Shown here piece after piece: positions 26,148 through 50,003 of a stretch of 64,000 bases of DNA. Location: NCBI GenBank assembly GCA_963666565.1, contig OY762911.1, positions 1-64,000 on the forward strand. The letters run 5' to 3'. Numbering within the stretch: position 1 is the stretch's first letter; every line of letters begins with the position of its first letter. This DNA is from Thermoanaerobaculia bacterium. Lineage in GTDB: Bacteria; Acidobacteriota; Thermoanaerobaculia; Multivoradales; Multivoraceae. The notes under the pieces were generated by a model. The model ran no database searches and was not told the DNA's origin. It worked only from the letters and a program-made list of their open reading frames with translations. The position numbers and the translations under genes were made by a program.

Positions 26148-26149
26148 CG

Positions 26150-26275: not shown

Positions 26276-26278
26276 CGG

Positions 26279-27928: not shown

Positions 27929-27930
27929 CT

Positions 27931-35054: not shown

Positions 35055-35914
35055 GCGTCCTCCCTGGCTTCCGAAGGATCGGCCGTGCCCGCCGGCGTCT
35101 GCCCGGCCCGGCCGCCGCGCTGGCCGCGCAGCGCCAGGTCGACGCCGACGAGCCGCCGGTTGCCCTCGACCCGGCTGGAACTGCCGCGGATCTCGCGCAG
35201 CACCAGGTAGTCGGCGAAGGCGGCCTCGACGTTCGCGCTGTAGCCCATCGCGTCCTGCGCCTTGTTCACGGCGAGCTTGCCCAGCCGCAGCACCGCCGGA
35301 TCGTTCTCGGCGATCCGTTCGGCGTAGGCCATCGTCTCGCGTTCCAGTTCGTCCTCGGCGTAGACGCGGTTGACCAGGCCCAGTTCCCGCGCCTCGTCCG
35401 CGTCGATGAAGCGGCTCTCGAAGAGCAGCTCCTTCGCCTTGCGGGGATGGATGTCCCAGGGCACGGTGAAGGTCTCGAACAGGCTGGCGAGGAACCGCGC
35501 GCTCGGCGCCGCGAAGATCAGGTCCATCGACGCGGCGATCATCCAGCCGCCGAAGATGCAGTAGCCGTGCACCATCGCGATCGTGGGCTTCGGCAGGTTG
35601 CGCCACTTGACCGTGTTATCCAGGTTGTACCAGCGGAACGCCTCGTACCAGTCCATGCCGACCCACTGGGTCAGCCCCCGTGCCTCGATGTCCGCCTGCT
35701 GCTCCGGCGTGCCCAGGTCGTGCCCGGAGGAGAAGTGCCTGCCGTCGCCCTTCAGCACGACGACCCGGACGTCTTCGTCGGCCATCGCCCGATCGAGCTG
35801 CAGGTCGAGGTCGTCGAGCAGCTTCCAGCTCTGCGCGTTGTGGTACCGGGCCCGGTCCAGCGTCAGCACCGCGACCGGGCCGCGCCGTTCGTATCGAACC
35901 TCTTCTGCTGCCAT
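35051..35914 (-). CDS. Enoyl-CoA hydratase/isomerase
   Basis: FSSGHDL, KPTIAMVHGYCIFGG and A.EA..LGLVNRV crotonase motifs. Confidence 0.92.
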   Translation of the reverse strand: MAAEEVRYERRGPVAVLTLDRARYHNAQSWKLLDDLDLQLDRAMADEDVRVVVLKGDGRHFSSGHDLGTPEQQADIEARGLTQWVGMDWYEAFRWYNLDNTVKWRNLPKPTIAMVHGYCIFGGWMIAASMDLIFAAPSARFLASLFETFTVPWDIHPRKAKELLFESRFIDADEARELGLVNRVYAEDELERETMAYAERIAENDPAVLRLGKLAVNKAQDAMGYSANVEAAFADYLVLREIRGSSSRVEGNRRLVGVDLALRGQRGGRAGQTPAGTADPSEAREDA

Positions 35915-35949
35915 ATCCTGTCCTCGAACCGTGATCTGGAGGGGAACCG

Positions 35950-37806
35950 ATGAAGCGTAGCGCAGAGTCCGCCGCCGTTCTGCTCGCCGCCTTCGCCCTC
36001 GGCTGCACAGCCGGCAGCGACGCTCCGGCGCCCGGCGAAGGCGCGCAGCCCCCCAACATCGTCCTCGTCGTGACCGACGACCAGGGCTACGGCGACTTCG
36101 GCTTCGCCGGCAACCCGGTCCTCCAGACGCCGCACCTCGACGCCCTGGCCGCCCAGAGCGCCACCGTCGAGCGCTTCTACGTGAGCCCGGTCTGCACTCC
36201 GACCCGCGCCTCTCTCATGACGGGCCGCTACAACTACCGCACCCGCGCCATCGACACCTACATCGGCCGCGCGATGATGGAGCCCGAGGAGGTGACGATC
36301 GCAGAGTTGCTGCGGGACGCCGGCTACGCCACCGGCATCTTCGGCAAGTGGCACCTGGGCGACAACTACCCGCTGCGCGCCATGGACCAGGGCTTCGAGG
36401 AAAGCCTGGTTCACCGGGGCGGCGGGATCGGCCAGCCCTCCGACCCGCCCGGCGGCGAGGGCAAGTACACGGACGCGGTGCTCTTCAGGAACGGAAAGCG
36501 GGTGGAGACGACCGGCTACTGCACGGACGTCTACTTCGACGCCGCGTTCGACTTCATGGAACAGGCGGCCAGCGAGGGGCGGCCGTTCTTCGCCTACGTC
36601 CCGACGAACGCGCCCCACGGTCCGTTCCACGACGTGCCGGAAGAGCTGCTGAAGCGCTATCGGCAAGCGGACCTGCGCGCGGCGCTCCCGGATCCCGGCC
36701 AGGCCAGCGAGCAGGCGCTCGACCGGCTGGCCCGCAGCTACGCGATGATCGGCAACATCGACGACAACGTCGGACGGCTGACCGCAAGGCTCGAGGAGCT
36801 GGGTCTCGCGGACAACACGCTCGTCGTCTTCCTGGTCGACAACGGACCGGACCGCGACCGCTACAACGCGGGGCTCCGCGGCCGCAAGGGAACCGTGTTC
36901 GAGGGCGGCGTCCGGTCGCCCCTGCTGGCGCGCTGGCCGGGGCGGCTGCCGGCGGACGCGCCGCCCGTCGACCGGATCGCGGCCCACATCGACATCGCGC
37001 CGACCCTGCTCGACGCCGCCGGCGTCGAACCGCCCGCCGGGTTGCATCTGGACGGCCGCAGCCTGCTCGGCCTGCTCTCCGGCGAGGACGACGCCGCGGA
37101 CTGGCCGGACCGGGCCATCTACCTGCAGTTCCACCGCGGCAACGAACCGATCCCGCTCCACTCCTTCGCCGCCGTCGGCCAGCGCTACAAGCTGGTCCAC
37201 CCGTCCCCGCGCGGCGAGGGGGACTGGAACGGCGAACTGGCCCTCGAGCTCTACGACCTCGAGACCGACCCGGGCGAGAGCCGCAACCTGATCGCCGGCA
37301 CCCGCGTGGCGCATTCCGCCGGGACCGCGACCGCCGCCGCGAGCCCGCCGGCGGACTCGCCGGACGAGATGTCCGAGGTCGCGGCCGGGATGCGGAACGC
37401 CTACCTGGCGTGGTTCGAGGACGTGAGCTCCACCCGGCCGGACAACTACGCGCCGCCACGGATCGTCGTCGGCACGGACCGCGAACCGGTCACCGTACTC
37501 ACCCGCCAGGACTGGCGGCGGATCACCGACGACCAGGGCTGGCGGCCGACCTCGCGCGGCCGTTGGCTGCTGAGAGCCCTGGACGACGCGACGTTCGACA
37601 TCGAGGTGCGGCTCGTCGCCGGCTCCAGCGGTCCGGTCCTCCTGGAAGTCGACGATCGGAAACTCAGCCAGGACCTGAACCCGGATCGGCAGACCGCGAC
37701 GTTTGAAGAGGTCCCGGTCCCCGCTGGCGACTTCGGGCTCAGCGCCGCGGCCGGCGAAGGCGAGGAACAGCGAGGAGCGCATCAGGTAGTGCTGCGGCAG
37801 CGCTAG
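35950..37806 (+). CDS. Arylsulfatase (lipoprotein)
   Basis: Lipobox ALGC, PNIVLVVTDDQGYGD, CTPTRASLMTGRY, GKWHLG and NAPH. Confidence 0.93.
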   Translation: MKRSAESAAVLLAAFALGCTAGSDAPAPGEGAQPPNIVLVVTDDQGYGDFGFAGNPVLQTPHLDALAAQSATVERFYVSPVCTPTRASLMTGRYNYRTRAIDTYIGRAMMEPEEVTIAELLRDAGYATGIFGKWHLGDNYPLRAMDQGFEESLVHRGGGIGQPSDPPGGEGKYTDAVLFRNGKRVETTGYCTDVYFDAAFDFMEQAASEGRPFFAYVPTNAPHGPFHDVPEELLKRYRQADLRAALPDPGQASEQALDRLARSYAMIGNIDDNVGRLTARLEELGLADNTLVVFLVDNGPDRDRYNAGLRGRKGTVFEGGVRSPLLARWPGRLPADAPPVDRIAAHIDIAPTLLDAAGVEPPAGLHLDGRSLLGLLSGEDDAADWPDRAIYLQFHRGNEPIPLHSFAAVGQRYKLVHPSPRGEGDWNGELALELYDLETDPGESRNLIAGTRVAHSAGTATAAASPPADSPDEMSEVAAGMRNAYLAWFEDVSSTRPDNYAPPRIVVGTDREPVTVLTRQDWRRITDDQGWRPTSRGRWLLRALDDATFDIEVRLVAGSSGPVLLEVDDRKLSQDLNPDRQTATFEEVPVPAGDFGLSAAAGEGEEQRGAHQVVLRQR

Positions 37807-37839
37807 CGCCAGCCGCGGCTCTGCTAACCTCCGCGGCCA

Positions 37840-38217
37840 ATGCTGCGCCGGACCGGTTCGCCACTCGCCATCGTCAACGCTCTCGCGCTGACGCTCGCCA
37901 CCCTGCTCGCTGGAGCCTGGGACTCGAGCGGCCACGGCCACGGCCTGGCCGCGGCGAACGCCGCCTACTGCGCGGTAGATCACGAGGCCGAGGCCAGCGG
38001 CGCCGCCAGCCGGGCCGCGGTCAGTCAGGCCGCGGCGACGCACGATCATTCCTGCGTCGCCTGCAATCTGGGACGTTCCAAGATCGTCGAGGAGCGCAAG
38101 ACCTCGATCGCCGGACTCCTGGACCTCCCCTCGGCCGCGACGGGCTCGGAGGACGGGGGCTGCCCCACCAGCGGCGAGCGCTGGCGGCACACCGCTCGCG
38201 GGCCGCCCCTGGGCTGA
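37840..38217 (+). CDS. DUF2946/CruR-like leader protein 1 (signal segment, HDHSCVAC, C-terminal RGPP)
   Basis: Hydrophobic N-terminus, CxxC and ARGPPLG-stop; paralog at 44114-44506; directly upstream of a TonB receptor. Confidence 0.8.
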   Translation: MLRRTGSPLAIVNALALTLATLLAGAWDSSGHGHGLAAANAAYCAVDHEAEASGAASRAAVSQAAATHDHSCVACNLGRSKIVEERKTSIAGLLDLPSAATGSEDGGCPTSGERWRHTARGPPLG

Positions 38218-38449
38218 GTCGATCCGACTCCGCCCGCGCTGCACAGCGCGACGCGTCGGAGTCGTGAAAAGAAAGGTGAGCGCCCCTCGTCGGGGTGACC
38301 GCGACGACCCGTAGCGGTCAGCTCAAGCTGACGCATCCCGGTCGTCCAACGGCGCCGCCGGCGATTCGGTGCGATCCCACCGCCGCGGAATCCGCGGCCT
38401 GCGCTACGGCACTCTTCGACTCGGACTGAACGACCCAGGAACCACAACC
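38214..38449 (+). promoter_or_regulatory. Structured intergenic leader 1 (putative translational switch)
   Basis: Hairpins conserved with 44503-44801; CTGAGTCGA (38214-38222) complementary to TCGACTCGG (38416-38424). Confidence 0.55.
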
Positions 38450-41044
38450 ATGATCGCCAACCGCACAAAGGCCTCGAACTCCTATCCGCGGCGCCGGCAC
38501 CACCGGCGCCAGGCGGCGACGGGCGCCGTTCTCTGCGCCCTCGCCCTTCTTCTCATTCCAGCGACGGCCGGCGCCCAGGAAACCGGCTCCGTCGCCGGGT
38601 CCGTCGAAACGCACGGCGAGAGAATCGTGCTCGCCGTGGCGCGCATCCCCGCGCTCGGCATCAGCGCCGCGGTGTCCACGGACGGCACGTTCCGCTTCGA
38701 CGAAGTGCCGGCCGGCACGTATCTCGTCGTCGTCGACATTCCCGCCTTCGGCACGGCCAGCGAGACGGTCACCGTGGCGGGCGGCGACGAGGTGGATCTC
38801 CAGCTCGAAATGCGTCACGGAACGCACTTCGACGAGGTCGTGGTCACCGCGACCGGCGACCTGCGCCGCGCCTCCGAACTGGCGAATCCCGTCTCCGTGC
38901 TGTCCGGCACGGACCTCCAGTTGCGCCTCGGCGCCACGCTGGGCGAAACGCTGGAGAACGAACCCGGCGTGTACTCGACGGCGTTCACCCCCGGCGCCGG
39001 CCGGCCGATCATCCGCGGCCTGACGGGCGCACGTGTGCGCGTCATGGAAGGCGGACTCGACACCGGCGACGCCTCCACCGTCAGTGCGGACCACGCGGTG
39101 ACCTTCGAACCGGCGCACGCCGAGCAGATCGAGGTTCTGCGCGGCCCCGCCACGCTCCGCTTCGGGTCGGAGGCCATCGGCGGCGCCGTCAACATCGTCG
39201 ACGGCCGGATTCCGACCGAGAAGCCCGTCAGCGCGCTGAAGGGCACGATCGACCTTCGCGGCGGCACCAACGCCGACGAGCGGATGGGCGCCATCCATCT
39301 CGACGGCGGCGGCGGCGAATGGGCTTGGCACCTGGGCGCCGTCAGCCGGGAGACCGATCCGTACGAGATCCCCGGCTACGCCCGCGTCGAGGAGGAGCAC
39401 GACGATCACGACGAGGACCATGACGAAGACCACGACGAGGATCACGACGAGGACGAGGATCACGACGAGGACGAGGACCACGACGACGAGGACCATGACG
39501 AAGATCACGACGAGGATGACCACGACGAACACGAAGAAGAGAACACCTTCGGGATGGTCCCGAACACGGATCTGAAGACGGAGAGCGGCCGGTTCGGCTT
39601 CACCCGCTTCTTCGGCGATCGCGGCTCGATCGGCGTTTCGGTCAGCGGCTTCGACACGAACTACGGGATCCCGCCTGGCGGGCACGCTCATCACGAGCAC
39701 GACGATCACGACGACGAGGACCACGACGAGGACCACGACGACGAGGACCACGACGACGAAGATCACGACGACGAAGACCACGACGACGAAGACCACGACG
39801 ACGAAGACCACGACGACGAAGACCACGACGACGAAGACCACGACGACGAAGATCACGACGACCACGAGGAAGAGGAAGTCCCGATCCGCATCGACATGCA
39901 GCAGCGCCGCGTCGACCTGCGCGCCGAGGCCCTGCCGGCGTCCGGCGCCTTTCAGAAGATCGAGGTCCGGATGGCGGGAACCGACTACGAGCACGTCGAG
40001 CTCGAAGGTCCCAACGTCGGCACGACCTTCTTCAACGAGTACTTCGAGACCCGGCTCGAGATGTTCCAGCGCGAGCGCGGCCGCAGTCGCGGCTCCGTCG
40101 GTCTCCAGTACTCGGACCGCAACCTGGAGGCCTTCGGCGAGGAGGCCTTCGTTCCTCCGACGCAGTCCGAGGGATTGGCGGTCTTCACCTCCCAGGAAGT
40201 CGAGGCCGGCGCCGTTCGCTGGCAGTTCGGGGCCCGCTTCGAGCAACTCGATCAGAACCCGGCGACTACCAGGGATACCTCGCACGACGGGGTCTCCGCC
40301 TCCGCCGGCCTCGTCTGGGACGCGGCCGACGACTGGGTGCTCGGCGTGTCGCTGGCTCGTTCGGTCCGCCTTCCGTCAGCGGAAGAGCTCTTCTCGGACG
40401 GCGTGCATGTCGCCACGCAGAGCTACGAGGTCGGCGACCCGAACCTCGACAACGAGGTCGGCACCGGCATCGACGTGTCGCTGCGCAAGACGGAGGGACC
40501 GCTGACCGGCGAACTGACGATCTTCCGCCAGAGCTTCAGCGACTTCATCTACCAGGCCTTCACCGGCGAAGAGGAGGACGGTTTCTCGGTGCTCCAGCAC
40601 AGCCAGGCCGACGCCACCACCGAAGGCGCCGAACTCCGGCTCCGGCTCGAGCTGCTCGACCGCAACGACCATCACCTGCACCTCCAGGCGATCGCCGACA
40701 CCGTCGACGCCGAGCTGGACGCGGGTGGCAACCTGCCGCGGATTCCGCCAATGAGCTTCGGCGCCGGCCTCCACTACCACGGCCACCATTGGCGCGCCGC
40801 GGTGGAGGGTCGCTGGTTCGACGACCAGAACGACGTCGCGGAACTGGAGACCCCGACCGAGGGCTACACTCTGGTGAACGCCCACGTCGGGCGGCGCTTC
40901 ATCGTCGGCAACCAGATCCTCGACGTGCTCCTGCGGGGCCGCAACCTGACGGACGAGGAGGCGCGCGTGCATACCTCGTTCCTGAAGAACTTCGCGGCCC
41001 TGCCCGGCAGGGACATCACCCTGTCGGCCCGGTTCTGGTTCTGA
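38450..41044 (+). CDS. TonB-dependent receptor, ZnuD-like, with His/Asp-rich loops
   Basis: Signal peptide, carboxypeptidase-like N domain, EVVVTA, RPIIRG, SADHAV, IEVLRGPATL.FGS.AIGGAVN and C-terminal F. Confidence 0.92.
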   Translation: MIANRTKASNSYPRRRHHRRQAATGAVLCALALLLIPATAGAQETGSVAGSVETHGERIVLAVARIPALGISAAVSTDGTFRFDEVPAGTYLVVVDIPAFGTASETVTVAGGDEVDLQLEMRHGTHFDEVVVTATGDLRRASELANPVSVLSGTDLQLRLGATLGETLENEPGVYSTAFTPGAGRPIIRGLTGARVRVMEGGLDTGDASTVSADHAVTFEPAHAEQIEVLRGPATLRFGSEAIGGAVNIVDGRIPTEKPVSALKGTIDLRGGTNADERMGAIHLDGGGGEWAWHLGAVSRETDPYEIPGYARVEEEHDDHDEDHDEDHDEDHDEDEDHDEDEDHDDEDHDEDHDEDDHDEHEEENTFGMVPNTDLKTESGRFGFTRFFGDRGSIGVSVSGFDTNYGIPPGGHAHHEHDDHDDEDHDEDHDDEDHDDEDHDDEDHDDEDHDDEDHDDEDHDDEDHDDEDHDDHEEEEVPIRIDMQQRRVDLRAEALPASGAFQKIEVRMAGTDYEHVELEGPNVGTTFFNEYFETRLEMFQRERGRSRGSVGLQYSDRNLEAFGEEAFVPPTQSEGLAVFTSQEVEAGAVRWQFGARFEQLDQNPATTRDTSHDGVSASAGLVWDAADDWVLGVSLARSVRLPSAEELFSDGVHVATQSYEVGDPNLDNEVGTGIDVSLRKTEGPLTGELTIFRQSFSDFIYQAFTGEEEDGFSVLQHSQADATTEGAELRLRLELLDRNDHHLHLQAIADTVDAELDAGGNLPRIPPMSFGAGLHYHGHHWRAAVEGRWFDDQNDVAELETPTEGYTLVNAHVGRRFIVGNQILDVLLRGRNLTDEEARVHTSFLKNFAALPGRDITLSARFWF
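39731..39850 (+). repeat. Coding 15-bp tandem repeat (DHDDE x8)
   Basis: GA(C/T)CACGACGACGA(A/G) eight times; five consecutive identical units at 39776-39850. Confidence 0.9.
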
Positions 41045-41066
41045 GTCGGGCAAGGAACTCAACGCC

Positions 41067-42323
41067 TTGCTCCCCTGCCGGGAAAAGACCACGCAGCGCT
41101 CCCTGACGTCCCGTTTCCGCGAGGCGTCTCTTCCCGCGGCGCTCTTCCTGTCTGTCTGCCTGATTGCCTGCGGGTCCGGCGTGCCCGTCGATCCGGGATC
41201 CGTCGAAGGCGCGACGCCCGCGGCGTCCTACGCGGAGACCTTCAGCGTCGTCGAACGGGACGGCTACCGCGTTGTCGACATCGAAGCGTCCGTCGTCGCC
41301 TGGGGCGGATCGGCGGGCGGACCGCCGCAACGCGTCCGCCTGGTGCTGGTCCCAAAGGGCGGAACGCCGCCAGCGCTGACGGGAGAACTGGCAGGCGCCT
41401 CGTTGATCCGAACGCCCGTCGAGCGGATCGCCGTCAACGATCAACCGCATGAGGCCATGCTGCGCGCACTCGGAGTGGAGAGCCGGATCGTCGCGGTCGG
41501 CGGGCGCGACAGCTACGACGACGGCCTGCGCCGCAAGGCCCGGTCACGTGAGATCCAGCAGATCGGCTACGCGTGGCACATGCCGCCTACGCTCGATGCG
41601 CTGGTGGCGTCGCGGCCCGAAGTGCTGATCGCGCGCATGGCCGACCTCACGCACACGCAGCACATGGAGCGCGTCGAGTCGCTCGGCATCGCGGTCGTGC
41701 CGACCTTCATCGATGCGGAGCCGCACTACATGGGGCGTGTCGAGTGGATCCGTCTGATGGGTCTGCTGACCGGTACGGAGGCGGAAGCCGATGAGTTCGT
41801 CCAGATGGTCGCGCAAGAGGTCGACCGCCTGAAGGCCATTGCGAACGGGCATCCCCGACGATCGGTTCTCTGGGCCTGGTACCGGAGCGCGGGCAATCGC
41901 TGGGCCGTCACGCAGCGCAACGCCGATGCGGCCCTCATTCGCGACGCCAACGCGGAGCTTGTCATGGGCGCCGAGGACGATCCGGAGCTCGACGCGTTCT
42001 CCGATCTCTCCACGGAACGGCTGCTGCGGGACGGTACGGATGCCGACTGCTGGATGATCCGCGACCCGCTCTCCGGAGTGTTCGACGATCAGGCCGTGCT
42101 TTCTCGCTTCAAGGCCTATCGGGACGATTGCGTGTTCTGGGAGTCCGGCAAGCGCCATCCCACCGCCGATTCGTGGGAGCTGTGGGAGATGGGCACCATC
42201 CGGCCGGACTGGCAACTGGCCGACATCATGAAGATGATGCATCCGGCACTGCGTGACGGCGAGTGGCGTTACCTCGCGCCGGAGACGTGGGAAGCGGACC
42301 ATGCCCTCGCGGGTCGGCACTAG
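41067..42323 (+). CDS. ABC transporter substrate-binding lipoprotein (BtuF/Fe-chelate class III type)
   Basis: LIAC lipobox, RTPVERIAV, E.HYMGRVEWIRLMGLL and RPDWQLADI. Confidence 0.85.
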   Translation: MLPCREKTTQRSLTSRFREASLPAALFLSVCLIACGSGVPVDPGSVEGATPAASYAETFSVVERDGYRVVDIEASVVAWGGSAGGPPQRVRLVLVPKGGTPPALTGELAGASLIRTPVERIAVNDQPHEAMLRALGVESRIVAVGGRDSYDDGLRRKARSREIQQIGYAWHMPPTLDALVASRPEVLIARMADLTHTQHMERVESLGIAVVPTFIDAEPHYMGRVEWIRLMGLLTGTEAEADEFVQMVAQEVDRLKAIANGHPRRSVLWAWYRSAGNRWAVTQRNADAALIRDANAELVMGAEDDPELDAFSDLSTERLLRDGTDADCWMIRDPLSGVFDDQAVLSRFKAYRDDCVFWESGKRHPTADSWELWEMGTIRPDWQLADIMKMMHPALRDGEWRYLAPETWEADHALAGRH

Positions 42324-43332
42324 CGTCGTCGTTCTGGTCGGCGCGCTCGCCGCGCTCTCGCTGCTCACCCTCACCTATGGGCAGATCGCGCTGCCACTGG
42401 CCGACACGGTCGGCGCGCTCACCGGAACGCTGTCGACCGACCTTGCGCGCCAGATCGTCCTCGACATTCGCCTTCCGCGAGTCGCCGCCGCGATCATCGC
42501 CGGCGCCGCGCTCGGCATGGCGGGAGTGCTGATGCAGGCCCTCTTCCGGAACCCGGTGGCCGACGGCTGGTCTCTCGGCCTGCTCGCGGGCGGCCAGCTC
42601 GGGGTCGCACTCACGGTGACCGCGGCGGCTTTTGCGGGTCCCGCGGCCGTGTCCTTCCTGACCTTCTTCGAGGGCCCCAGCATCACGCTGGCGGCCGCCG
42701 CCGGCGTAGCGGTTGCGGCATTCGCCATGCTCGCGCTCGGCCGCCGCGTCGGCGCCATCACGCTGCTCGTCATCGGCCTGATGCTCGGCTTCACCTCCCA
42801 GGGCCTCACCAGCGTTCTTCTTCACTTCGCCGCCCGCGCCGGCGGCCGGATCTATGGCGGATGGCAGGATGCGAGCTTCGCCGGCGTCGCCCCTTCGGCG
42901 CTGGCGTGGCTCTCGCTGCCGATCCTCGTCGGCGCCTGCGTCGCCGTCGCGACGGCCAAGCCGCTCAGTTCGCTGCTTCTCGGCGAGGCCTACGCGCGCA
43001 GCCTCGGGGTCAAGGTGACGTCGCTCCGACATGCCGTCCTCGCGGCTACCGTACTCCTGGTGGCGCCGGTCGTGGCCTTCTGCGGTCCGGTCAGCTTCGT
43101 CGGCCTCATCGCACCGCACTTCGCGCGCGCACTGGCCGGGACGGCGCGAATCCTCCCGCTCCTGCCGCTTGCCGCGCTTGGCGGTGCGCTGCTTGCCCTT
43201 GCCGGCGACGCCATCGTTCATGCGCCGTGGGAACAGCACTTCCTGCACCTGAACGCGATCCTCGCCATCGTCGGCGCCCCGGTCGTGATTCTCATCCTGA
43301 TCCTCTCACCGGCCGTGAGACAGTGGCGCTGA
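42301..43332 (+). CDS. FecCD/BtuC-type ABC permease
   Basis: IRLPR, G.LMQ.LFRNP.A, LGE.YARSLG and CGPVSFVGLIAPH. Confidence 0.92.
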   Translation: MPSRVGTSVVVLVGALAALSLLTLTYGQIALPLADTVGALTGTLSTDLARQIVLDIRLPRVAAAIIAGAALGMAGVLMQALFRNPVADGWSLGLLAGGQLGVALTVTAAAFAGPAAVSFLTFFEGPSITLAAAAGVAVAAFAMLALGRRVGAITLLVIGLMLGFTSQGLTSVLLHFAARAGGRIYGGWQDASFAGVAPSALAWLSLPILVGACVAVATAKPLSSLLLGEAYARSLGVKVTSLRHAVLAATVLLVAPVVAFCGPVSFVGLIAPHFARALAGTARILPLLPLAALGGALLALAGDAIVHAPWEQHFLHLNAILAIVGAPVVILILILSPAVRQWR

Positions 43333-44117
43333 TGCTGGATCTGCGATCCCTCGCCGTGGGCTACCGCAACACACGGAACATCGTTCTTTCCGGCATCGAC
43401 CTGGCGGCCGCGCCTGGCGACTTCATCTGCATCCTCGGCCGCAACGGGTCCGGGAAGTCGACGCTCATGCGCACGATCGCGGCGCTGCAAACCTCGCTCG
43501 ACGGCGCCGTGCTGCTCGACGGCGAGGACGTCGCCTCCATGCGTCCGGCGACCCGCGCGCGCCGGATCGCGGTCGTGCTGACGGAGCGGCAGTTCAATCC
43601 GGGCCTGCGCGTCGAGGACGTCGTCGCACTCGCCCGGCAGCCCTTCACGGGTTGGCAGGGTGGACTGGCGGACGACGACCGGGCGGCGGTCGCCGACGCC
43701 GTCGCGACAGCCGGCGTCGGGCCGTTCCTGCGCCGTTTCTTCAGCGATCTCAGCGACGGCGAGCGACAGCGCGTGATGATCGCGCGGGCGCTCGCACAAA
43801 CCCCGCGCCTCATGGTCCTCGACGAGATCACGGCCTTCCTCGACCTTCCAAGCCGGGTCGAGATCACGGCCCTCCTGCGCTCCCAGGCGAAGCAGAAAGG
43901 GCAGGTCATCCTGCTCTCAAGCCACGACCTCGACCTTTCGCTTCAGCTCGCCGACAGCGTCTGGCTGCTCGACGGCACCGGCGGCTTTTCGGTCGGCACG
44001 CCGGCGGCCCTGAGCGAGAGTGGCGGGCTCGGCCGTGCCTTCGACACGGAGGCGATCCGGTTCTCGCCCTCCCACGGGCGGTTCGAGATCCGGATGTCCC
44101 CATCCGCGAATCCATGA
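43332..44117 (+). CDS. ABC ATPase (FecE/BtuD-type)
   Basis: GRNGSGKST, LSDGERQR, LDE and SHD. Confidence 0.92.
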   Translation: MLDLRSLAVGYRNTRNIVLSGIDLAAAPGDFICILGRNGSGKSTLMRTIAALQTSLDGAVLLDGEDVASMRPATRARRIAVVLTERQFNPGLRVEDVVALARQPFTGWQGGLADDDRAAVADAVATAGVGPFLRRFFSDLSDGERQRVMIARALAQTPRLMVLDEITAFLDLPSRVEITALLRSQAKQKGQVILLSSHDLDLSLQLADSVWLLDGTGGFSVGTPAALSESGGLGRAFDTEAIRFSPSHGRFEIRMSPSANP

Positions 44118-44506
44118 TAAAAGGCCCCTCCGTGCCGCACCGATCCCACTCGCCGCTCGTCATCGTCAACGCACTCGCGCTGACGGTCGCGACGCTCGTC
44201 GCCGCCTGGGACGCGGGCTGCCACGACCATGACGAGCCGGCGGCAAGGGACGCCCGGTACGCGATCAACCAGGAAGCCGCGGCCTCCGGGGCCGCGAACC
44301 CCGCCAGCCTCGCCAGCGCCGAGGCGCCGCACGAACACTCCTGCGTCGCGTGCAGGATCGGATGCTCGAAGTCGGCCGAGATCGCCAGGAACTCCGCTTC
44401 CAGGCCGCTCGACCTCGCTTCGGCCGCGGCAAGGCCCGAGAACGACGGCAGCGCCCGACGCGGCGCGCCCAGGCTGCAGGCTGCTCGCGGTCCGCCGCTG
44501 GGCTGA
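44114..44506 (+). CDS. DUF2946/CruR-like leader protein 2 (HEHSCVAC, C-terminal RGPP); start 44114 or GTG 44132
   Basis: Clear paralog of 37840-38217 (SPL.IVNALALT.ATL, H.HSCVAC, LDL, ARGPPLG-stop). Confidence 0.8.
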   Translation: MIKGPSVPHRSHSPLVIVNALALTVATLVAAWDAGCHDHDEPAARDARYAINQEAAASGAANPASLASAEAPHEHSCVACRIGCSKSAEIARNSASRPLDLASAAARPENDGSARRGAPRLQAARGPPLG

Positions 44507-44801
44507 GTCGAACAGCGGCGCCGACCCGCGCGGCAACGCGCGGCGTCGGAGCCTCCAGAAAGCAAACCAGGCGTCGCCCGCCCCACTTCGGGGCGATGGC
44601 GACGACGCCATCGCGGTCAGCCGTTGCTGACCCGAACGGAGTCGCAGCATCGCGCGACCGACGAGTTCGGCACGCCGCAAGCGCTGCGAATCCTCAGCCA
44701 GCGCCACACAAGCTCCCTTGACCCGGAGGGCCTTCGATCCGAAGGGCCTTCGACTCGGAGGGACCCTCGACTCGGACCGAACCATGCAGGAACTCAAGAC
44801 A
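44503..44801 (+). promoter_or_regulatory. Structured intergenic leader 2
   Basis: Same hairpin order as leader 1; CTGAGTCGA (44503-44511) complementary to TCGACTCGG at 44750-44758 and 44767-44775. Confidence 0.55.
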
Positions 44802-47348
44802 ATGCTCGCTACCTTCACCAAGCTCTCGAACTCCAATCCACGGCGCCGGCCCCGCTGGCGCCAAGCAGCGACGGGCGCCGCTCTCTGCGCCCTTGCCCTC
44901 ATCCTCCCCCCGCCGCCGGCCAACGGTCAGGCGACGGGATCCGTCGCCGGAACGGTCACGAGCCCCGGCGAAGCCGGCATCTCGCTCGCCGTCGCCCGTC
45001 TCTCCGAGTTGTCCCTCAGCGCCCCGGTGGCCGCGGACGGGACGTTTCGGTTCGACGCCGTGCCTCCCGGCACGTATCTCCTGGTCGTCGACATTCCGTC
45101 GGTCGGCCTGACCAGCCAGCCGGTCACCGTCTCGGCCGGCCAGCAGACGACCCTCGAACTGGAACACGATCACTTCACCCACTTCGACGAGATCGTCGTC
45201 ACCGGCTCCGGCGATCTCCGGAACGAGTCCGAGCTGCCGAACGCGATCTCCGTGCTGGGCGGCGCCGACCTGCAACTGCGCCTGGGGGCGACGCTGGGCG
45301 AGACCCTGGCGGGGGAACCGGGCCTGTCCTCCACCGCGTTCGTTCCGGGAGCGGCGCGGCCGGTCATCCGCGGCCTTTCGAGCGCGCGCGTTCGTGTGCT
45401 CAACGGCGGCATGGGAACCGGCGACGTTTCCGTGGAGAGCGCCGACCACGCCGTGACGACCGACCCGATCCTGGCGGAGCAGGTCGAAGTGCTGAGAGGT
45501 CCGGCCACGCTCCGCTACGGCTCGGGCGCCATCGGCGGCGCCGTGAACGTCGTCGACGGTCGCATTCCAGCGAACCGGGCGGCAAGGACCGTTGGCGGCA
45601 GGATCGACCTGGTCGGCGGTTCGGTGGCCGACGAGGAGACGGGCGCGGTCCAACTCAACGGAGGCGGCGGCGAATGGGCCTGGCACATCGGGGCCGTCAG
45701 CCGGAAGACCGATCCGTACGAGATCCCCGGCTACGCCCGCCTCGAGGAGGAGCACGACGACCACGACGACCACGGCCACGAGGACGAGGACCACGAAAAC
45801 GACGACCACGACGACCACGAAGAGGAGAACAGCTTCGGCATCGTCCCGAACACGGACCTGAGGACCGAAAGCGGCCGGGTCGGCGTCACGCGCTTCTTCG
45901 GCAACCGCGGTTTCCTGGGCGTCTCGTTCAGCGGTTTCAGCACCGACTACGGCATTCCGCCAGGCGCACACAGCCACGCAGGGCACGATCACGGCGGAGA
46001 CGGCCACGACGAGGACGGGGATCACCACGACGAGGACGGGGATCACCACGACGAGGACGAGGACCATCACGACGAGGATGACGACCACCACGGCGACGAC
46101 GAGGACCACCACGACGAGGATGACGACCACCACGACGAGGATGACGACCACCACGACGAAGAGGAAGAGCACCATGACGACGGCGACATTCGCCTCGACA
46201 TGAAGCAGCAGCGCTTCGACCTCAGAGCCAGCGTCAACCTGCTCGCACCCGCCTTCGAGAGGCTCGAACTGCAAACGTCCGGAACGGACTACGAGCACGT
46301 CGAGTTCGAAAGCGGCCACACCGGCGTCCTCTACACGAACGACCTCTTCGAGACCCGGGTCGAGATGTTCCAACGCGAGCGGGGCGCCAGCCGGGGCAGC
46401 GTCGGCTTGCAGTACGTGGACCGCGATCTCGCCGCGGTCGGCGCCGAGGCCTTCATCCCCCCGACCCGCTCGAACACCTGGGCGGCTTTCACCTCCCAGG
46501 AGATTCAGAGGGGATCGGTTCGCTGGCAGTTCGGCGCCCGCTTCGAACAGGCCGAGCACGACCCGGCAAACGGACCGGCCTGGTCCGGCGACGGCGTTTC
46601 CGCCTCGACCGGCATCGTCTGGACGGCCGGAGACGCGTGGAACCTCGGCGTGTCGGCCTCGCGCTCAGTTCGCCTTCCCAGTCCGGGCGAGCTGTTCTCC
46701 CACGGTGCTCACATACCCACCCGGACCTTCGACATCGGCGATCCCGACCTGGACGCGGAAGTCGGCGCCGGCCTGGACATCACGCTTCGCAGGGAGGAGG
46801 GCGCCGTCCAGGGCAAGTTGACCCTGTTCCGGCAGGACTTCCAGGACTTCATCTACCACGCGTTCACCGGCACGGAGCTCTCTGGCTTCCCGGTCACCGT
46901 CTACAGTCAGGCCGACGCGACGATGACCGGCGCGGAGCTCCACGCGCGGATAGAGCTCGCGGAGTGGAACGGGCACGACCTGCACATGGAGATCGTGGGC
47001 GACACGGTCGACGCGGAACTGGACGAAGGCGGCAATCTGCCGAGAATTCCGCCGCTGAGCCTGGGCGCCGGCGTCCACTACCACGGCCACGACTGGCGGG
47101 CAGCGGTCGAGTGGCGGTGGGTCGACGACCAGAACGATGTCGCCGAGCAGGAGACGCCGACCGACGGCTACGCCATGCTGAACGCGCACATCGGCCGGCG
47201 CTTTACGGCGAACGACCAGATCTTCGACCTGCTCCTGCGGGGGCGGAACCTGACCGACGAGGAAGCCCGGGTGCACACGTCCCTGCTCAAGACGTTCGCG
47301 CCCCTGCCCGGGAGGGACATCACGCTGTCGGCGCGGTTCTGGTTCTGA
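44802..47348 (+). CDS. TonB-dependent receptor, ZnuD-like paralog 2
   Basis: Colinear with receptor 1, including both His-rich loops and the identical C-terminus LPGRDITLSARFWF; start chosen by homology and AGGA RBS. Confidence 0.92.
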   Translation: MLATFTKLSNSNPRRRPRWRQAATGAALCALALILPPPPANGQATGSVAGTVTSPGEAGISLAVARLSELSLSAPVAADGTFRFDAVPPGTYLLVVDIPSVGLTSQPVTVSAGQQTTLELEHDHFTHFDEIVVTGSGDLRNESELPNAISVLGGADLQLRLGATLGETLAGEPGLSSTAFVPGAARPVIRGLSSARVRVLNGGMGTGDVSVESADHAVTTDPILAEQVEVLRGPATLRYGSGAIGGAVNVVDGRIPANRAARTVGGRIDLVGGSVADEETGAVQLNGGGGEWAWHIGAVSRKTDPYEIPGYARLEEEHDDHDDHGHEDEDHENDDHDDHEEENSFGIVPNTDLRTESGRVGVTRFFGNRGFLGVSFSGFSTDYGIPPGAHSHAGHDHGGDGHDEDGDHHDEDGDHHDEDEDHHDEDDDHHGDDEDHHDEDDDHHDEDDDHHDEEEEHHDDGDIRLDMKQQRFDLRASVNLLAPAFERLELQTSGTDYEHVEFESGHTGVLYTNDLFETRVEMFQRERGASRGSVGLQYVDRDLAAVGAEAFIPPTRSNTWAAFTSQEIQRGSVRWQFGARFEQAEHDPANGPAWSGDGVSASTGIVWTAGDAWNLGVSASRSVRLPSPGELFSHGAHIPTRTFDIGDPDLDAEVGAGLDITLRREEGAVQGKLTLFRQDFQDFIYHAFTGTELSGFPVTVYSQADATMTGAELHARIELAEWNGHDLHMEIVGDTVDAELDEGGNLPRIPPLSLGAGVHYHGHDWRAAVEWRWVDDQNDVAEQETPTDGYAMLNAHIGRRFTANDQIFDLLLRGRNLTDEEARVHTSLLKTFAPLPGRDITLSARFWF

Positions 47349-47352
47349 CGGG

Positions 47353-47358
47353 TATACT
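47353..47358 (+). promoter_or_regulatory. -10 box for tRNA-Glu
   Basis: TATACT followed by a GC-rich discriminator about 47 nt upstream of the tRNA. Confidence 0.45.
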
Positions 47359-47404
47359 CCGCGGCTCGACAGCGGTCGGCACCGCGGCCACGGCCCGAAT
47401 CCGC

Positions 47405-47481
47405 GTCCCCATCGTCTAGCCAGGTCAGGACTCCAGCCTTTCAAGCTGGCAACACGGGTTCGAATCCCGTTGGGGACGCCA
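47405..47481 (+). tRNA. trnE: tRNA-Glu(TTC)
   Basis: Acceptor stem GTCCCCA/TGGGGAC, anticodon arm CCAGC-CTTTCAA-GCTGG, T arm ACGGG-TTCGAAT-CCCGT, encoded CCA. Confidence 0.95.
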
Positions 47482-47492
47482 TCGCGCCGGAT

Positions 47493-47961
47493 GGCGCGAT
47501 GGCGGCCACAACGGGTTCGGTCGACGCTGCTCGCCTACGGCTCGCCGCTCTGGAACGTATCCCGTTGGGGACGAAGCCCTGCCGGTCGGCGCGATGGCGG
47601 CCACAACGGGTTCGGTCGACGCTGCTCGCCTACGGCTCGCCGCTCTGGAACGTATCCCGTTGGGGACGAAGCCCTGCCGGTCGGCGCGATGGCGGCCACA
47701 ACGGGTTCGGTCGACGCTGCTCGCCTGCGGCTCGCCGCTCTGGAACGAATCCCGTTCAACGCGAAACGTCAACACGCCGGATCGGCGCGATGGCGGCCAC
47801 AACGGGTTCGGTCGACGCTGCTCGCCTCCGGCTCGCCGCTCTGGAACGAATCCCGAGCGAGACGTCAACCCGCCGACTGGCGCGATGGCGGCCACAACGG
47901 GTTCGGTCGACGCTGCTCGCCTCCGGCTCGCCGCTCTGGAACGTATCCCGTTGGGGACGCC
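47493..47961 (+). repeat. tRNA-linked tandem array: 5 x 72-nt conserved unit with 23-29-nt linkers
   Basis: Units start at 47493, 47588, 47683, 47784 and 47879; each carries ACGGGTTCG...CG(T/A)ATCCCG of the tRNA T arm. Confidence 0.92.
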
Positions 47962-47988
47962 GGGCGGGCGGTTGGTACCCTGAACGGG

Positions 47989-49962
47989 ATGAAGGTGATC
48001 GCGAACTCGGGGGTTCGGCGTCGGGCTGGGCGGCGAGCCCTCGTTGCGTGGGCCGGCGTGCTGGTGCTGGGGTCGACGCTGGCGGCGCAGGAGGGCGAGT
48101 GGCCGTACTTCGGCGGTGACCGCACCTTCAAGCGCTACTCGCCGCTCGACCGGATCGACGCCTCGAACGTCGGCGATCTGCGCATCGTGTGGCGGCGGCC
48201 GGGTCTGGAACCGGAGCTCAGGGAGGAGTTCCCCGAGTTGCGGCCGGGCAACAACCTGCGATCGACGCCGATCATGGTCGAAGGTCGCCTCTTCCTGACC
48301 AACCTCGTCGGCCTGCTGCGCGCCGTCGACCCGGCGAGCGGCGAGACCCTGTGGGCTCAGGCGCCGTTCGAGCCGACGATCGAGGAGGCACGCGGCTTGA
48401 GCCCACGAGGCGTCGACCTCTGGACCGGCGGCGAGCGGCAACGACTGTTCCTCGCACGCGGCAACTACCTGTACTCGGTCGACGCCTCGAGCGGCGAGCT
48501 CGACGGCGACTTCGGCGACCAGGGACGCGTCAGCCTCCGCCTCCCGGGACCGCTTGCCGGCGATTTCACCTGGACCGCCGGGCCGATCGTCGTGGGCGAC
48601 GTCGTCGTGACGGCCGGATACACCGGAGGCGCCGGCGACGGCGGCAGCAAGAGAGAAGCGACGCCGGAGGACGTGCGCGGCTACGACGTCCGCACGGGCC
48701 GCCGGCTGTGGACGTTCCACGTCGTGCCGCGGCCGGGCGAGCCGGGCAACGAGACCTGGGGCGACGGCTCGTGGGAGTACTCGGGCGACCTCGGGTCGTG
48801 GTGCTGCCTGTCGGCCGACGAGGAACTCGGCCACGTCTACGTCCAGCTCTCGGCCCCGACCGCGGCGTACTACGGCGGCCACCGGCCCGGCGACAACCTG
48901 TATTCCAACTCGCTCGTGGCGCTGGACGCCGGGACGGGCGAGCGAGTCTGGCACTTTCAGATGGTGCGCCACGACGTCTGGGAGTGGGACACGGTCGGTC
49001 CGGCGACCCTCGGCGAGATCACGGTCGACGGGAGGCGGATCGACGCCGTCATGCAGCCCTCGAAGACCGGCTTCCTCTACGTCTTCGATCGCCGTACCGG
49101 GGAGCCGGTGTGGCCGATCGAGGAGAGGGCCGTGCCCGGCTCACGGGTCCCCGGGGAGCAACTGTCGCCGACCCAGCCGTTCCCGACGAAGCCGCCGCCC
49201 TTCGACCGGCAGGGATTCGTGGAGGACGACCTGATCGACTTCACGCCGGAGCTCCGGGCACGCGCCCTGGAACTCGTCAAGCCCTTCCGTCTCGGGCCGA
49301 TGTTCACGCCGCCCGGCCTGATGGACGACGAGCAGGGGAAGATCGGCACCCTGACGAACCCGGGATGGTGGGGAACGGGGAACTGGCATACCGGCGCCTT
49401 CGATCCCGAGACCGGCGTGTACTACGCCGTGTCCCACACCTGGCCGAGCGTGTACTCCCTGACACAGCCGGAAGGCAGCGACGCGACACTCGGCTACGTG
49501 GTCGGCTACGACGGTCCCGACGTACCGACCCTCGACGGACTCCCGATCGTGAAGCCACCCTACGGGCGAATCACCGCAATCGACATGCATCGCGGCGAGC
49601 ACGTGTGGATGGCGGCCAACGGCGACGGGCCTCGAGACCATCCCCTGCTCGAAGGCCTCGACGCGCCGCCCCTGGGAGTCGCCGGGCGGCCGGCGCCGCT
49701 GGTGACGAAGACGCTGCTGTTCATCGGTGAAGGCAGCGACGCCATCCCCGGCATCGAGGGGGAAGAAGGCCGCTACTGGGGCAGGAAGTTCCGCGCCTAC
49801 GACAAGGCCACGGGCGAGGTCGTGTGGGAAACGGAGCTGCCGTCCGGCACCACCGGCGCGCCGATTACCTACATGCACGAGGGTCGCCAGTTCATCGTCG
49901 TCGCGATCGGCGGCAACGAGTCCCCGGCGGAATTCGTGGCGTTTGGCCTGCCGCTGGACTGA
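47989..49962 (+). CDS. PQQ-dependent dehydrogenase (glucose/quinate dehydrogenase-like)
   Basis: Signal peptide, RYSPLDRI, STPIMVEG, RGV..W, RPGDNLYSNSLVALDA.TG, SPTQPFP and KPPYG. Confidence 0.9.
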   Translation: MKVIANSGVRRRAGRRALVAWAGVLVLGSTLAAQEGEWPYFGGDRTFKRYSPLDRIDASNVGDLRIVWRRPGLEPELREEFPELRPGNNLRSTPIMVEGRLFLTNLVGLLRAVDPASGETLWAQAPFEPTIEEARGLSPRGVDLWTGGERQRLFLARGNYLYSVDASSGELDGDFGDQGRVSLRLPGPLAGDFTWTAGPIVVGDVVVTAGYTGGAGDGGSKREATPEDVRGYDVRTGRRLWTFHVVPRPGEPGNETWGDGSWEYSGDLGSWCCLSADEELGHVYVQLSAPTAAYYGGHRPGDNLYSNSLVALDAGTGERVWHFQMVRHDVWEWDTVGPATLGEITVDGRRIDAVMQPSKTGFLYVFDRRTGEPVWPIEERAVPGSRVPGEQLSPTQPFPTKPPPFDRQGFVEDDLIDFTPELRARALELVKPFRLGPMFTPPGLMDDEQGKIGTLTNPGWWGTGNWHTGAFDPETGVYYAVSHTWPSVYSLTQPEGSDATLGYVVGYDGPDVPTLDGLPIVKPPYGRITAIDMHRGEHVWMAANGDGPRDHPLLEGLDAPPLGVAGRPAPLVTKTLLFIGEGSDAIPGIEGEEGRYWGRKFRAYDKATGEVVWETELPSGTTGAPITYMHEGRQFIVVAIGGNESPAEFVAFGLPLD

Positions 49963-50003
49963 GCCCGCCCGCTCCGCCGACCACCTCACCCAGGAGTCCA
50001 CCC

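Follow-up and report, generated by a model that had tools for sequence, protein, structure and literature searches.

Paired RGPP leader peptides ahead of ZnuD-like receptors in a Thermoanaerobaculia bacterium are candidate metal-sensing arrest leaders of a family conserved in Acidobacteriota

A stretch of 64,000 nt of contig OY762911.1 (GCA_963666565.1) from a Thermoanaerobaculia bacterium, in the following called the window, contains in its region 37840-47348 two colinear modules, each composed of a small leader open reading frame (ORF), a long conserved intergenic RNA and the gene of a ZnuD-like TonB-dependent receptor, which together flank an ABC importer of the FecCD type (Table 1). Both leaders combine a signal-like N-terminus and histidine motifs with a CxxC motif and an RGPP tetrapeptide close to the stop codon. 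By analogy with CruR (Bordetella pertussis Bp2923; PMC9426467) and CutF (Rhodobacter capsulatus, cutFOG; bioRxiv 10.1101/2025.02.05.636593), they are probably cis-acting, metal-sensing arrest leaders.

All genes are encoded on the plus strand in the order leader 1, receptor 1, binding protein, permease, ATPase, leader 2 and receptor 2. The two leaders are 52% identical, with HxHSCVAC and ARGPPLG-stop being identical and the middle part diverged, and the receptors share 65% identity across 386 aligned residues. An alignment of the DNA of both modules covers leader and intergenic region and continues into the receptor gene. The duplication of colinear modules around an ABC importer, which a first-pass annotation of this DNA had described, is thereby borne out by the layout and by the comparison of leaders, receptors and DNA. 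The ends of the receptor ORFs given there were right, and their starts had to be corrected to the homologous start codons ATG 38450 and ATG 44802, from which intergenic regions of 232 nt and 295 nt result. R[AG]PP tetrapeptides occur 37 times in the six frames of the window, and only those of leaders 1 and 2 are located near the end of long ORFs with a high GC content at third codon positions (GC3).

In leader 1 the hydrophobic N-terminus is followed by GHGH (residues 31-34), YCAVDHE (43-49), HDHSCVAC (68-75) and RGPP (120-123), which precedes Leu-Gly-stop. Leader 2 contains GCHDHD, HEHSCVAC, RGPP (codons 44486-44497) and Leu-Gly-stop, and it is devoid of the C-x-x-D-H motif of leader 1. Both N-termini consist of basic residues and a 15-residue stretch with a mean Kyte-Doolittle hydropathy of 2.25 and 2.47, respectively, and this hydrophobic segment is conserved across the family. 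The anatomy as first described, i.e., a signal-like N-terminus, histidine residues, H(D/E)HSCVAC, a diverged middle and ARGPPLG-stop, is found in the sequence of both leaders.

A search with leader 1 resulted in 59 proteins at E ≤ 0.001 among 217 candidates, the named ones being hypothetical proteins from Holophagales or from metagenome-assembled genomes (MAGs) of Acidobacteria. In an alignment of the two window leaders with 26 of these 59 relatives the residues M1, S7, A14, L17, W27, H34, C72, A74, C75, G121, P122 and P123 are invariant and R120 almost invariant. Moreover, contigs were scanned with the HSC-x-AC block as pattern, so that only fairly close relatives can be found; 47 of 54 matches were confirmed, yielding 45 loci, all in Acidobacteriota MAGs (Candidatus Multivorans, Thermoanaerobaculia, Holophagales, Vicinamibacteraceae). 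The regular expression H-x-C-[VIL]-A-C identified 65 leader ORFs in these loci and the window, and one further leader, with CVGC, was caught by tblastn only. RGPP is present in 63 of the 65; one leader carries LGPP (locus L036, 10001-10378) and one is cut before the motif (second leader of L033, 13264-13539). Among the remaining 64, the motif lies exactly two residues before the stop codon in 63, the exception having ten residues (L040, 10001-10417), and the gap from CxxC to RGPP amounts to 44 residues in 57 leaders and to 43 in seven.

The codons of the motif are informative regarding the level at which selection acts. In these 64 leaders arginine is encoded by CGC (62) or CGT (1), with CTC for leucine in one leader, glycine by GGG (14), GGT (21), GGA (17) or GGC (12), the first proline by CCG (58), CCA (4) or CCC (2) and the second by CCC (43), CCG (13), CCT (4) or CCA (4). 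All four glycine codons and several proline codons are in use, showing that the peptide and not the RNA is under selection.

The same motifs are found in distant relatives. In a profile search of 1.84 billion representatives no more than 33 proteins reached E ≤ 0.001, and each of them is of the RGPP type. Within the distant representatives P0060-P0089 both motifs are present in 28 of 30, the other two being fragments; of these 28, the gap is 43-44 residues in 27 and two residues follow RGPP in 23. An alignment of 36 sequences, reaching down to about 22% identity, retains H34, C72, C75 and R120-G-P-P123 as invariant positions and H32, H48, H68 and H70 as nearly invariant ones. The first-pass annotation had named missing conservation of RGPP and CxxC in homologues as a finding that would speak against its reading; both motifs are conserved in relatives with only about 22-30% identity. 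Several distant members (P0066, P0068, P0072, P0073, P0075 and P0085-P0087) contain CxxCH, the attachment motif of heme c, at the place of CxxC(N/R) in the window leaders. A reading of CxxC(H) as part of a c-type cytochrome was rejected, as the profile search against solved structures returned only cytochromes c at non-significant E values (0.6-1.5) and the window leaders do not have that histidine.

The family relation to DUF2946 (PF11162), to which CruR belongs, is less clear. Leader 1 aligns with the model almost over its full length (positions 3-117 of 117) at E 0.0042 and 18.3 bits, i.e., below the gathering score of 23.7, and leader 2 has no DUF2946 match in the Pfam search; the match to the family invoked in the first-pass annotation is thus a weak one. 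Twenty-one of 28 close relatives match PF11162 at E ≤ 1 (best 4.6e-4), none at gathering level, and seven of 29 distant representatives do so at E ≤ 0.01 (best 22.8 bits). As to the traits of DUF2946 leaders, C72 and C75 of the CXXC motif are invariant in the alignments of 28 and of 36 sequences, the spacing from CXXC to the arrest motif is constant within 1-2 residues (43-44), and a long intergenic region followed by a metal-related gene comes next. The arrest motif is RGPP and not RAPP, RGPP having performed as well as RAPP or better in published assays (PMC12992588), and class-2 leaders, defined below, are internal and not the first gene. We take the full-length matches below threshold as a possible family link in favor of arrest leaders, and the leaders appear to form a distinct RGPP clade, which may have branched off DUF2946 at a large distance or may resemble it by convergence.

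The second line of evidence is synteny. A TonB-dependent receptor gene lies downstream of 63 of 64 assessable leaders, 56 of them ZnuD-like (55 with an implied start 100-520 nt downstream, and L001) and seven of a second receptor type, which substantiates the association of leader and receptor in Acidobacteriota for which the first-pass annotation had proposed a survey. The remaining two are a leader at a contig end (L039) and a leader followed by an aminotransferase gene (L024, 2497-2874). Intergenic lengths among the homologues are about 150-300 nt. The tandem order leader 1, receptor 1, leader 2, receptor 2 is common, and an ABC importer is inserted only in the window and in L011, L012, L029, L041 and L043, in which the ATPase gene is likewise adjacent to leader 2. 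In the importer-less loci L003, L005, L021, L025, L026, L042 and L044 a GC-rich hairpin (GGGCTGTCCGG...CCGGACAGCCC) with a T-rich tail is located between receptor 1 and leader 2; it resembles a terminator, suggesting that leader 2 may be separately transcribed there.

The leaders fall into three classes according to the receptor they precede. Class 1, before receptor 1, is characterized by (S/N/G)GHGH(D/E) ... YC(A/V)VDHE ... HDHSCVAC(K/N)LGR. Class 2, before receptor 2, shows (G/V)CH(D/L)HD ... W(C/S)xxD(H/R)E ... HEHSCVACR, with an extra cysteine ahead of the first histidine motif and frequent loss of the CxxDH motif. Class 3, preceding the second type of receptor, has NNHGH ... HCTVDH ... 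HDHSC(I/V/L)ACQ and is found in L020, L027, L028, L030, L034, L036 and L038 (leader at about 10001-10378). The paralogues were first read as differing in their ligands, and they do: the cysteine of CHDH is class-wide, while the one of the RIGC segment occurs in only some homologues. The class-3 receptor is a siderophore-receptor-like TonB-dependent protein without histidine tracts, and it is followed by genes for two ABC-2-type ATPases, a 1145-aa protein without family match and an ABC2_membrane/DUF3526 permease. By annotation only, this gene content resembles the one tabulated for the Zur-regulated znuK-znuGHI cluster of Caulobacter (PMC4176598).

For both window receptors the best NCBIfam model is ZnuD (NF038289) with 350.8 and 363.6 bits, the cut-off of 950 not being reached, and among solved structures ZnuD (4rdr) comes first with E 1e-47 and 9e-51, OprC, a copper porin, appearing only at E 6e-4. 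The term 'ZnuD-like' therefore describes a resemblance and not membership in the ZnuD equivalog. Both receptors have CarboxypepD_reg, Plug and barrel domains and carry long tracts of histidine, aspartate and glutamate encoded by tandem DNA repeats with a period of 12-36 and up to 11 copies, located at 39395-39540 and 39699-39862 in receptor 1 and at 45739-45820 and 46004-46180 in receptor 2. With this kind of encoding, loop length is likely to vary between strains by repeat slippage. In receptor 2 it is the second tract that can be aligned with the His-rich loop region of ZnuD (segment YGLP-AHSH...HDDDNAH), a segment that we take to bind zinc. The importer is of the FecCD/BtuCD type, and for its binding protein neither an NCBIfam match nor a solved relative at E ≤ 0.01 was found. 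No Zur or Fur gene was recognized among 29 further ORFs of the window, no Zur/Fur-type box was seen in it (no Acidobacteriota Zur motif stands behind the box scan), and the operon contains no gene for a copper enzyme or copper chaperone.

Intergenic region 1 starts with a chain of GC-rich hairpins and ends with a C-rich, G-poor and largely unpaired 3' segment. Its minimum free energy (MFE) of -128.7 kcal/mol is lower than that of shuffled sequences (-111.0 +/- 5.2, z -3.4; 1 of 200 shuffles as good), and the same is observed for region 2 (-160 kcal/mol versus -136.6 +/- 5.2, z -4.5; 0 of 100 shuffles as good). The receptor start was assignable for 55 of the 65 leaders, and 45 of these 55 regions, i.e., region 1 and 44 homologous ones, were aligned with MAFFT, after removal of near-duplicates (L009_10375, L026_10375, L044_1007), a region containing Ns (L010), regions with long insertions (L012_5641, L032_13644, L045) and short class-3 regions (L028, L030, L038); L036 was excluded from the class-wise folds. 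The structure that was counted comprises the pairs present in 40% or more of the single-sequence folds. In this structure 90% of cells are paired and 10 of 37 pairs show changes on both sides, equalled by 10 of 500 shuffles, and RNAalifold returned only 17 pairs for the 45-sequence alignment. The best supported helix, hairpin H3, has the same number of compensatory pairs in the class-1-only alignment (4 of 7); hairpin H5 has 3 of 7 and the hairpin just after the stop codon 1 of 8 plus 1 of 3. Among the classes, the interiors are strongly different (150 nt in class 3 versus 232-295 nt in the window).

Two further elements frame these hairpins. A candidate long-range helix between GAGUCGA at the leader stop codon and UCGACUC ahead of the receptor gene appears when the two window regions, and likewise a class-3 region with a quite different interior, are folded for MFE; its pairs occur in 18-28 of 45 single-sequence folds, with 90% of cells paired. 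In class 2 (n=20) the consensus shows an 11-pair long-range helix with one compensatory pair, enclosing hairpins with 1-3 compensatory pairs each. Region 2 has a hairpin series like region 1, with long-range arms at 44505-44511 and 44767-44773 and the Shine-Dalgarno sequence AGGAA at 44788-44792, and it contains 3.8 copies of a 16-nt tandem repeat (CCTTCGACCCGGAGGG, 44716-44776), which duplicates the UCGACUCGG box; a similar insertion is present in L019. The distal box was searched as GACTCGGACTGAACGACCCAGGAAC (38418-38442) with up to five substitutions in the 45 loci and the window. All 52 copies of this box, GACUCGGACUGAACGACCCAGGAAC, lie within 400 nt after a leader stop codon, and receptors without leader lack it.

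Rfam 15 at E ≤ 1 gave for positions 35000-50000 only a tRNA and, at this tRNA, a plastid hit due to chance, with no match in the intergenic regions, and the terminator scan found no terminator-like site on the plus strand. The structured RNA of the first-pass annotation is supported insofar as folds surpass shuffles and some hairpins are compensatory; the support is partial and an Rfam family did not emerge. A clear C-rich, G-poor stretch exists only from about 38365 into the receptor gene (C 38-46%, G 19-32%). Two devices were rejected: sequestering of the Shine-Dalgarno sequence by the last leader codons (CCUGGG with CCCAGG in the fold of module 1), as the last two codons vary among homologues, and a rut site placed as in CruR within the leader's 3' half, as no bubble of C over G is found there.

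Upstream of leader 1 an extended -10-like element is located. The conserved element (G)GCTCTGCTAACCTCCGC(A/G)GCCA directly precedes class-1 and class-3 leaders whatever the upstream gene, and in 40 of 43 leaders of these classes its core TGnTAnnnT precedes the ATG by 7-11 nt (by 9 nt in 32 leaders and by 8 nt in five); it is absent in all 12 class-2 leaders with a settable start (ten more have no ATG in the expected range). As background, seven matches occur on both strands of the window (128 kb). A Shine-Dalgarno sequence is not visible before the leader-1 ATG, and a generic sigma-70 scan found no plus-strand site. The element is likely an extended -10 promoter giving rise to a leaderless or nearly leaderless mRNA that starts at or near this ATG. 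Leader 2 does not have the element and overlaps the ATPase stop codon, suggesting that it acts as an internal gate within one operon in the window.

Table 1. Features of the two modules and their predicted elements (window coordinates)
Feature	Position	Strand	Remarks
Extended -10-like element TGCTAACCT (TGnTAnnnT)	37822..37830	+	ends 9 nt before leader-1 ATG
Leader 1, class 1	37840..38217	+	125 aa; GC3 0.87, coding-like
Arg120-Gly-Pro-Pro123 codons, predicted arrest site	38197..38208	+	as for CruR, Pro122 expected in P site, Pro123 in A site
GAGUCGA, candidate long-range helix 5' arm	38216..38222	+	overlaps UGA stop codon
Intergenic region 1	38218..38449	+	232 nt
Hairpin H3, GGUCAGC-UCAA-GCUGACG	38316..38333	+	best supported helix; 4/7 pairs compensatory, 95% of cells paired
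UCGACUC, candidate long-range helix 3' arm	38416..38422	+	about 25 nt before Shine-Dalgarno
Distal conserved box: UCGACUC, then GGACUGAACGACCC, then Shine-Dalgarno AGGAA (38437-38441)	38416..38442	+	box search
TonB-dependent receptor 1	38450..41044	+	CarboxypepD_reg, plug and barrel; ZnuD-like
Periplasmic binding protein Peripla_BP_2	41067..42323	+	N-terminus lipoprotein-like
FecCD-family ABC permease	42253..43332	+	part of FecCD/BtuCD-type importer
ABC ATPase	43329..44117	+	TGA stop shares ATGA (44114-44117) with leader 2 ATG
Leader 2, class 2	44114..44506	+	130 aa; inside operon; no Pfam match
Intergenic region 2	44507..44801	+	295 nt
TonB-dependent receptor 2	44802..47348	+	ZnuD-like; alternative in-frame ATG at 44784

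Beyond receptor 2 a tRNA-Glu (UUC) gene (47405-47481) is followed by 5.2 copies of a 95-nt tandem repeat (47464-47959), the unit of which starts with the tRNA 3' end. The ORF of a PQQ dehydrogenase (47470-49962) has a long N-terminal extension across this repeat array, which is probably not real. A lanthanide link via this neighbor was set aside, as the tRNA gene and the repeat array part the dehydrogenase from the module. Elsewhere the window encodes a ZIP-family metal transporter (3649-4746, minus strand), a second PQQ dehydrogenase with a cytochrome c domain (1197-3476, plus strand) and, in an island of lower GC content (23649-29349; 0.63-0.64 versus about 0.70), two AAA_5 (McrB-like) proteins, which give weak PADLOC restriction-enzyme matches, and an McrBC-component protein.

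The sequences show how the leaders are built, that this build and the synteny are conserved and that selection acts on the peptide; arrest, metal sensing, its polarity and the coupling to receptor expression are steps that we infer as follows. The short, probably exported nascent chain would sense the metal, and the C-terminal RGPP would arrest the ribosome two codons before the stop codon, in leader 1 with 38203-38205 in the P site. With the peptidyl-transferase center at Pro122/Pro123, the HxHxCxxC cluster would be placed 44 residues upstream (its CxxC 47-50 residues from the center), just outside of the exit tunnel, and HxH and CxxDH further out. The exit tunnel accommodates about 30-40 residues, and the ribosome footprint extends roughly 12-15 nt 3' of the P site. 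Metal loading of the ligands would decide on persistence or release of the arrest, and the arrested ribosome, covering the stop codon and the first bases of GAGUCGA, would set the expression of the receptor 232 or 295 nt downstream. Leader 1 would head the operon as a leaderless message from the probable extended -10 promoter, while leader 2 would be translationally coupled to the ABC ATPase and form a second, internal gate for receptor 2. The first-pass annotation had proposed such a metal-responsive arrest, and conservation and synteny support this proposal, parts of which were overstated.

The direction of the response can be modeled on either of two characterized relatives. CruR controls the TonB-dependent receptor BfrG/CrtA; without copper its arrest holds off Rho and the receptor is expressed, and copper relieves the arrest (PMC9426467). 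Applied to the leaders described here, arrest would persist with little metal and the receptor would be made, and with enough metal the arrest would be released, the RNA would close and/or Rho would terminate on the C-rich, G-poor distal segment, and the receptor would be off. We regard this polarity as the most likely one, with a chance of about one half.

As to the metal, zinc is our tentative first choice, still short of an even chance: the receptors are nearest to ZnuD with an expanded His/Asp loop, five conserved histidines stand beside the two cysteines of the leaders, and the class-3 operon resembles a Zur-regulated cluster. Possible, and judged rather unlikely, is a copper system like CruR, in which the CxxC motif would sense copper and the ZnuD-like receptors would import copper or a copper chelate. 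CruR and CutF, two characterized relatives, both respond to copper, CxxC is a classical copper motif, and CopL is linked to copper-regulated expression (PMC9426467; bioRxiv 10.1101/2025.02.05.636593; PMC9973294); moreover, the copper receptor model TIGR01778 comes up as a weak secondary hit for receptor 2 (58.9 bits, cut-off 472). However, the receptors are closest to ZnuD and not to OprC, CrtA forms a cluster apart from receptors of known structure (PMC12914433), and the operon is devoid of copper enzymes and chaperones. Furthermore, the DUF2946 logo shows only CXXC, RAPP and one semi-conserved cysteine (PMC9426467), in contrast to the five conserved histidines of the leaders. Another metal or a metal chelate is as doubtful as copper; the FecCD-type importer and the suggestion of nickel or cobalt binding for His-only CutF-like clusters beside HupE/UreJ (PMC9973294) argue in its favor.

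Alternatively, the leaders might follow the polarity of CutF, such that metal binding induces or prolongs arrest, the ribosome opens the RNA and the receptor is made in the presence of metal. This is improbable. CutF works by metal-induced arrest and requires its signal peptide (bioRxiv 10.1101/2025.02.05.636593), the leaders have the hydrophobic N-terminus, and the predicted long-range helix would have its 5' arm covered by an RGPP-arrested ribosome. Yet for an uptake receptor with large metal-scavenging loops, induction by metal is physiologically hardly meaningful, the Shine-Dalgarno sequence lies outside of any conserved helix, and the long intergenic regions are as in CruR (162 nt; PMC9426467), intergenic length being a listed difference between CruR and CutF (PMC9973294).

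Even less probable is that the leaders are ordinary exported metal-binding proteins acting in trans, such as periplasmic chaperones or metallophore-like peptides, with RGPP being incidental or merely slowing translation. The signal-like N-terminus, the many conserved histidines and cysteines and the constant neighborhood with receptors would fit such an accessory protein. However, RGPP is fixed two residues from the stop codon and keeps its distance to CxxC, while the intervening 44 residues are free to diverge, the distal RNA box is found only after leaders, RGPP is reported to be the most avoided tetrapeptide of bacterial proteomes (PMC12992588), and CruR and CutF were reported to be undetectable or poorly structured (PMC9426467; PMC9973294). 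Finally, that the intergenic RNA itself is a metal or metabolite riboswitch to which the leader merely delivers ribosomes is very improbable, because its conservation, its folding and its compensatory hairpins stand against the lack of an Rfam family at E ≤ 1, the strongly different interiors of the classes, the unexplained conservation of peptide ligands and spacing, and the finding that cruR mRNA did not sense copper in vitro (PMC9426467).

Several observations weigh against cis-acting metal-sensing arrest leaders of the CruR/CutF kind or against parts of the mechanism outlined above. No member of the leader family reaches the PF11162 gathering score, and of the 90 clusters that came from an alignment-seeded search of 5.8 billion proteins not one carries PF11162 or any other precomputed Pfam domain; eight small ORFs of plasmid pMOL30 did not include a bona fide DUF2946 protein either. 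No bridge to true DUF2946 proteins turned up, and the similarity may thus reflect homology or convergence. For the class-3 region the fold does not surpass that of shuffles (z +0.79), and the long-range helix shows compensatory change in 0 of 8 pairs, with variant sequences breaking it, so that this helix is no more than a candidate. The consensus structure leaves the Shine-Dalgarno sequence unsequestered. Unlike in CruR, a C>G bubble is absent from the leader's 3' half, and the only clear stretch of this kind lies 150-200 nt downstream of the arrest site, beyond direct shielding by a stalled ribosome. Moreover, the importer is of the FecCD/Peripla_BP_2 and not of the ZnuABC type, which weakens a simple free-zinc reading.

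Metal-responsive arrest peptides are a recent discovery (CruR in 2022, CutF in 2021-2025), and so far only copper was demonstrated as their signal. The leaders described here constitute a compact, well-conserved family that differs in its ligands (HxH, CxxDH, HxHxCxxC) and precedes zinc-receptor-like transporters, and they offer a concrete test of nascent-chain sensing beyond copper, for which the three paralogue classes provide natural specificity variants; an arrest leader as an internal gate inside an operon adds to their interest. As the family stays below the Pfam threshold, PF11162-based surveys would miss RGPP leaders. The practical value is modest and consists of a better annotation of 'hypothetical' ORFs in Acidobacteriota MAGs and a possible metal-responsive expression element. 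In a more far-reaching version, which we consider unlikely, the leaders would be the first nascent-chain sensors of zinc or another non-copper metal, the three classes of this Acidobacteriota lineage, with their systematically different Cys/His ligands, would form a purely post-transcriptional regulon for at least three receptors that does the job of Zur, the messages would be leaderless, and arrest would directly block the long-range helix that closes the intergenic RNA from the stop codon to the box 25 nt before the Shine-Dalgarno sequence.

Parts of the arrangement are already known. DUF2946 upstream ORFs (uORFs) before TonB-dependent receptors were described (PMC9426467), and small secreted RGPP/RAPP uORFs are enriched upstream of TonB-dependent receptors across Gram-negative phyla (PMC12992588). 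The first-pass annotation had seen a departure from CruR in the receptor target, which does not hold, since CruR itself controls BfrG/CrtA and only the receptor family differs (PMC9426467; PMC12914433). Its non-copper version was likewise not a new idea: CutF-like clusters with varied Cys/His motifs were described and non-copper metals were proposed for them; the word 'zinc' does not occur in the main text of that report (PMC9973294). Different from the known systems are RGPP in place of RAPP, the extra invariant histidines, the DUF2946 similarity below threshold, the ZnuD-type target, the internal second leader overlapping the ATPase stop codon and the likely leaderless start. In the literature searched we found neither an RGPP family with HxH...CxxDH...HxHxCxxC nor an arrest leader before ZnuD-like receptors, and published supplementary ORF lists may include them.

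Compared with the receptor for zinc piracy, ZnuD of Neisseria meningitidis, the window receptors have a His/Asp-rich tract at the position of the His-rich loop region. Unlike ZnuD, they possess an additional N-terminal CarboxypepD_reg domain and two much longer His/Asp/Glu tracts, their partner importer is of the FecCD type, and they would be regulated by a leader rather than, as far as visible, by Zur. The downstream genes also set the leaders apart from arrest peptides of the ApdA/ApdP type, since these genes encode TonB-dependent receptors and not sec or yidC functions. With the RAPP/RGPP arrest peptides (ApdA, ApdP and ApcA variants and seven Streptomyces lividans peptides) they share the C-terminal R(A/G)PP, the small secreted protein and a co-directional downstream gene, whereas the characterized peptides of that group monitor protein localization or belong to Actinomycetota (PMC12992588). 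RGPP was the strongest and least context-dependent arrest sequence in reporter and PURE assays in several sequence contexts, and in the toeprint of CruR the two proline codons occupy the P and A sites (PMC12992588). As in SecM-secA, a stalled ribosome near the end of an upstream ORF would reshape the mRNA for a downstream gene; SecM differs in that it senses secretion activity and not metal and in that its helix lies directly over the secA ribosome-binding site.

CutF is similar as an exported nascent-chain sensor with a cysteine motif plus a C-terminal arrest motif rich in prolines that acts only in cis. It differs by CxxxC, a PPP motif and a multicopper oxidase as target, and its copper-induced stalling melts a stem-loop over the cutO ribosome-binding site (bioRxiv 10.1101/2025.02.05.636593), while no conserved helix covers the Shine-Dalgarno sequence in the modules described here. 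The closest likeness is to CruR, in which CXXC and RAPP are 45 residues apart and RAPP lies three residues from the C-terminus, in which long intergenic regions are typical of the homologues, and which heads more than 40% of the CrtA operons (PMC9426467; PMC12914433). The leaders are likewise small ORFs with a signal-like N-terminus, their CxxC lies 43-44 residues before R-x-P-P, the motif is two residues from the C-terminus, no Fur/Zur-type box is seen, and a long intergenic region separates them from a TonB-dependent receptor. They differ from CruR, the rut site of which is located in the 3' half of the leader (PMC9426467), by RGPP instead of RAPP, by five extra conserved histidines, by scores below the Pfam gathering level, by a ZnuD-like instead of a CrtA-like target, by the absence of a PepSY_TM gene and by the second copy inside the operon. 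They also occur in Acidobacteriota, whereas the survey of CruR homologues lists Proteobacteria and a few Planctomycetes, Firmicutes and Deinococcus (PMC9426467).

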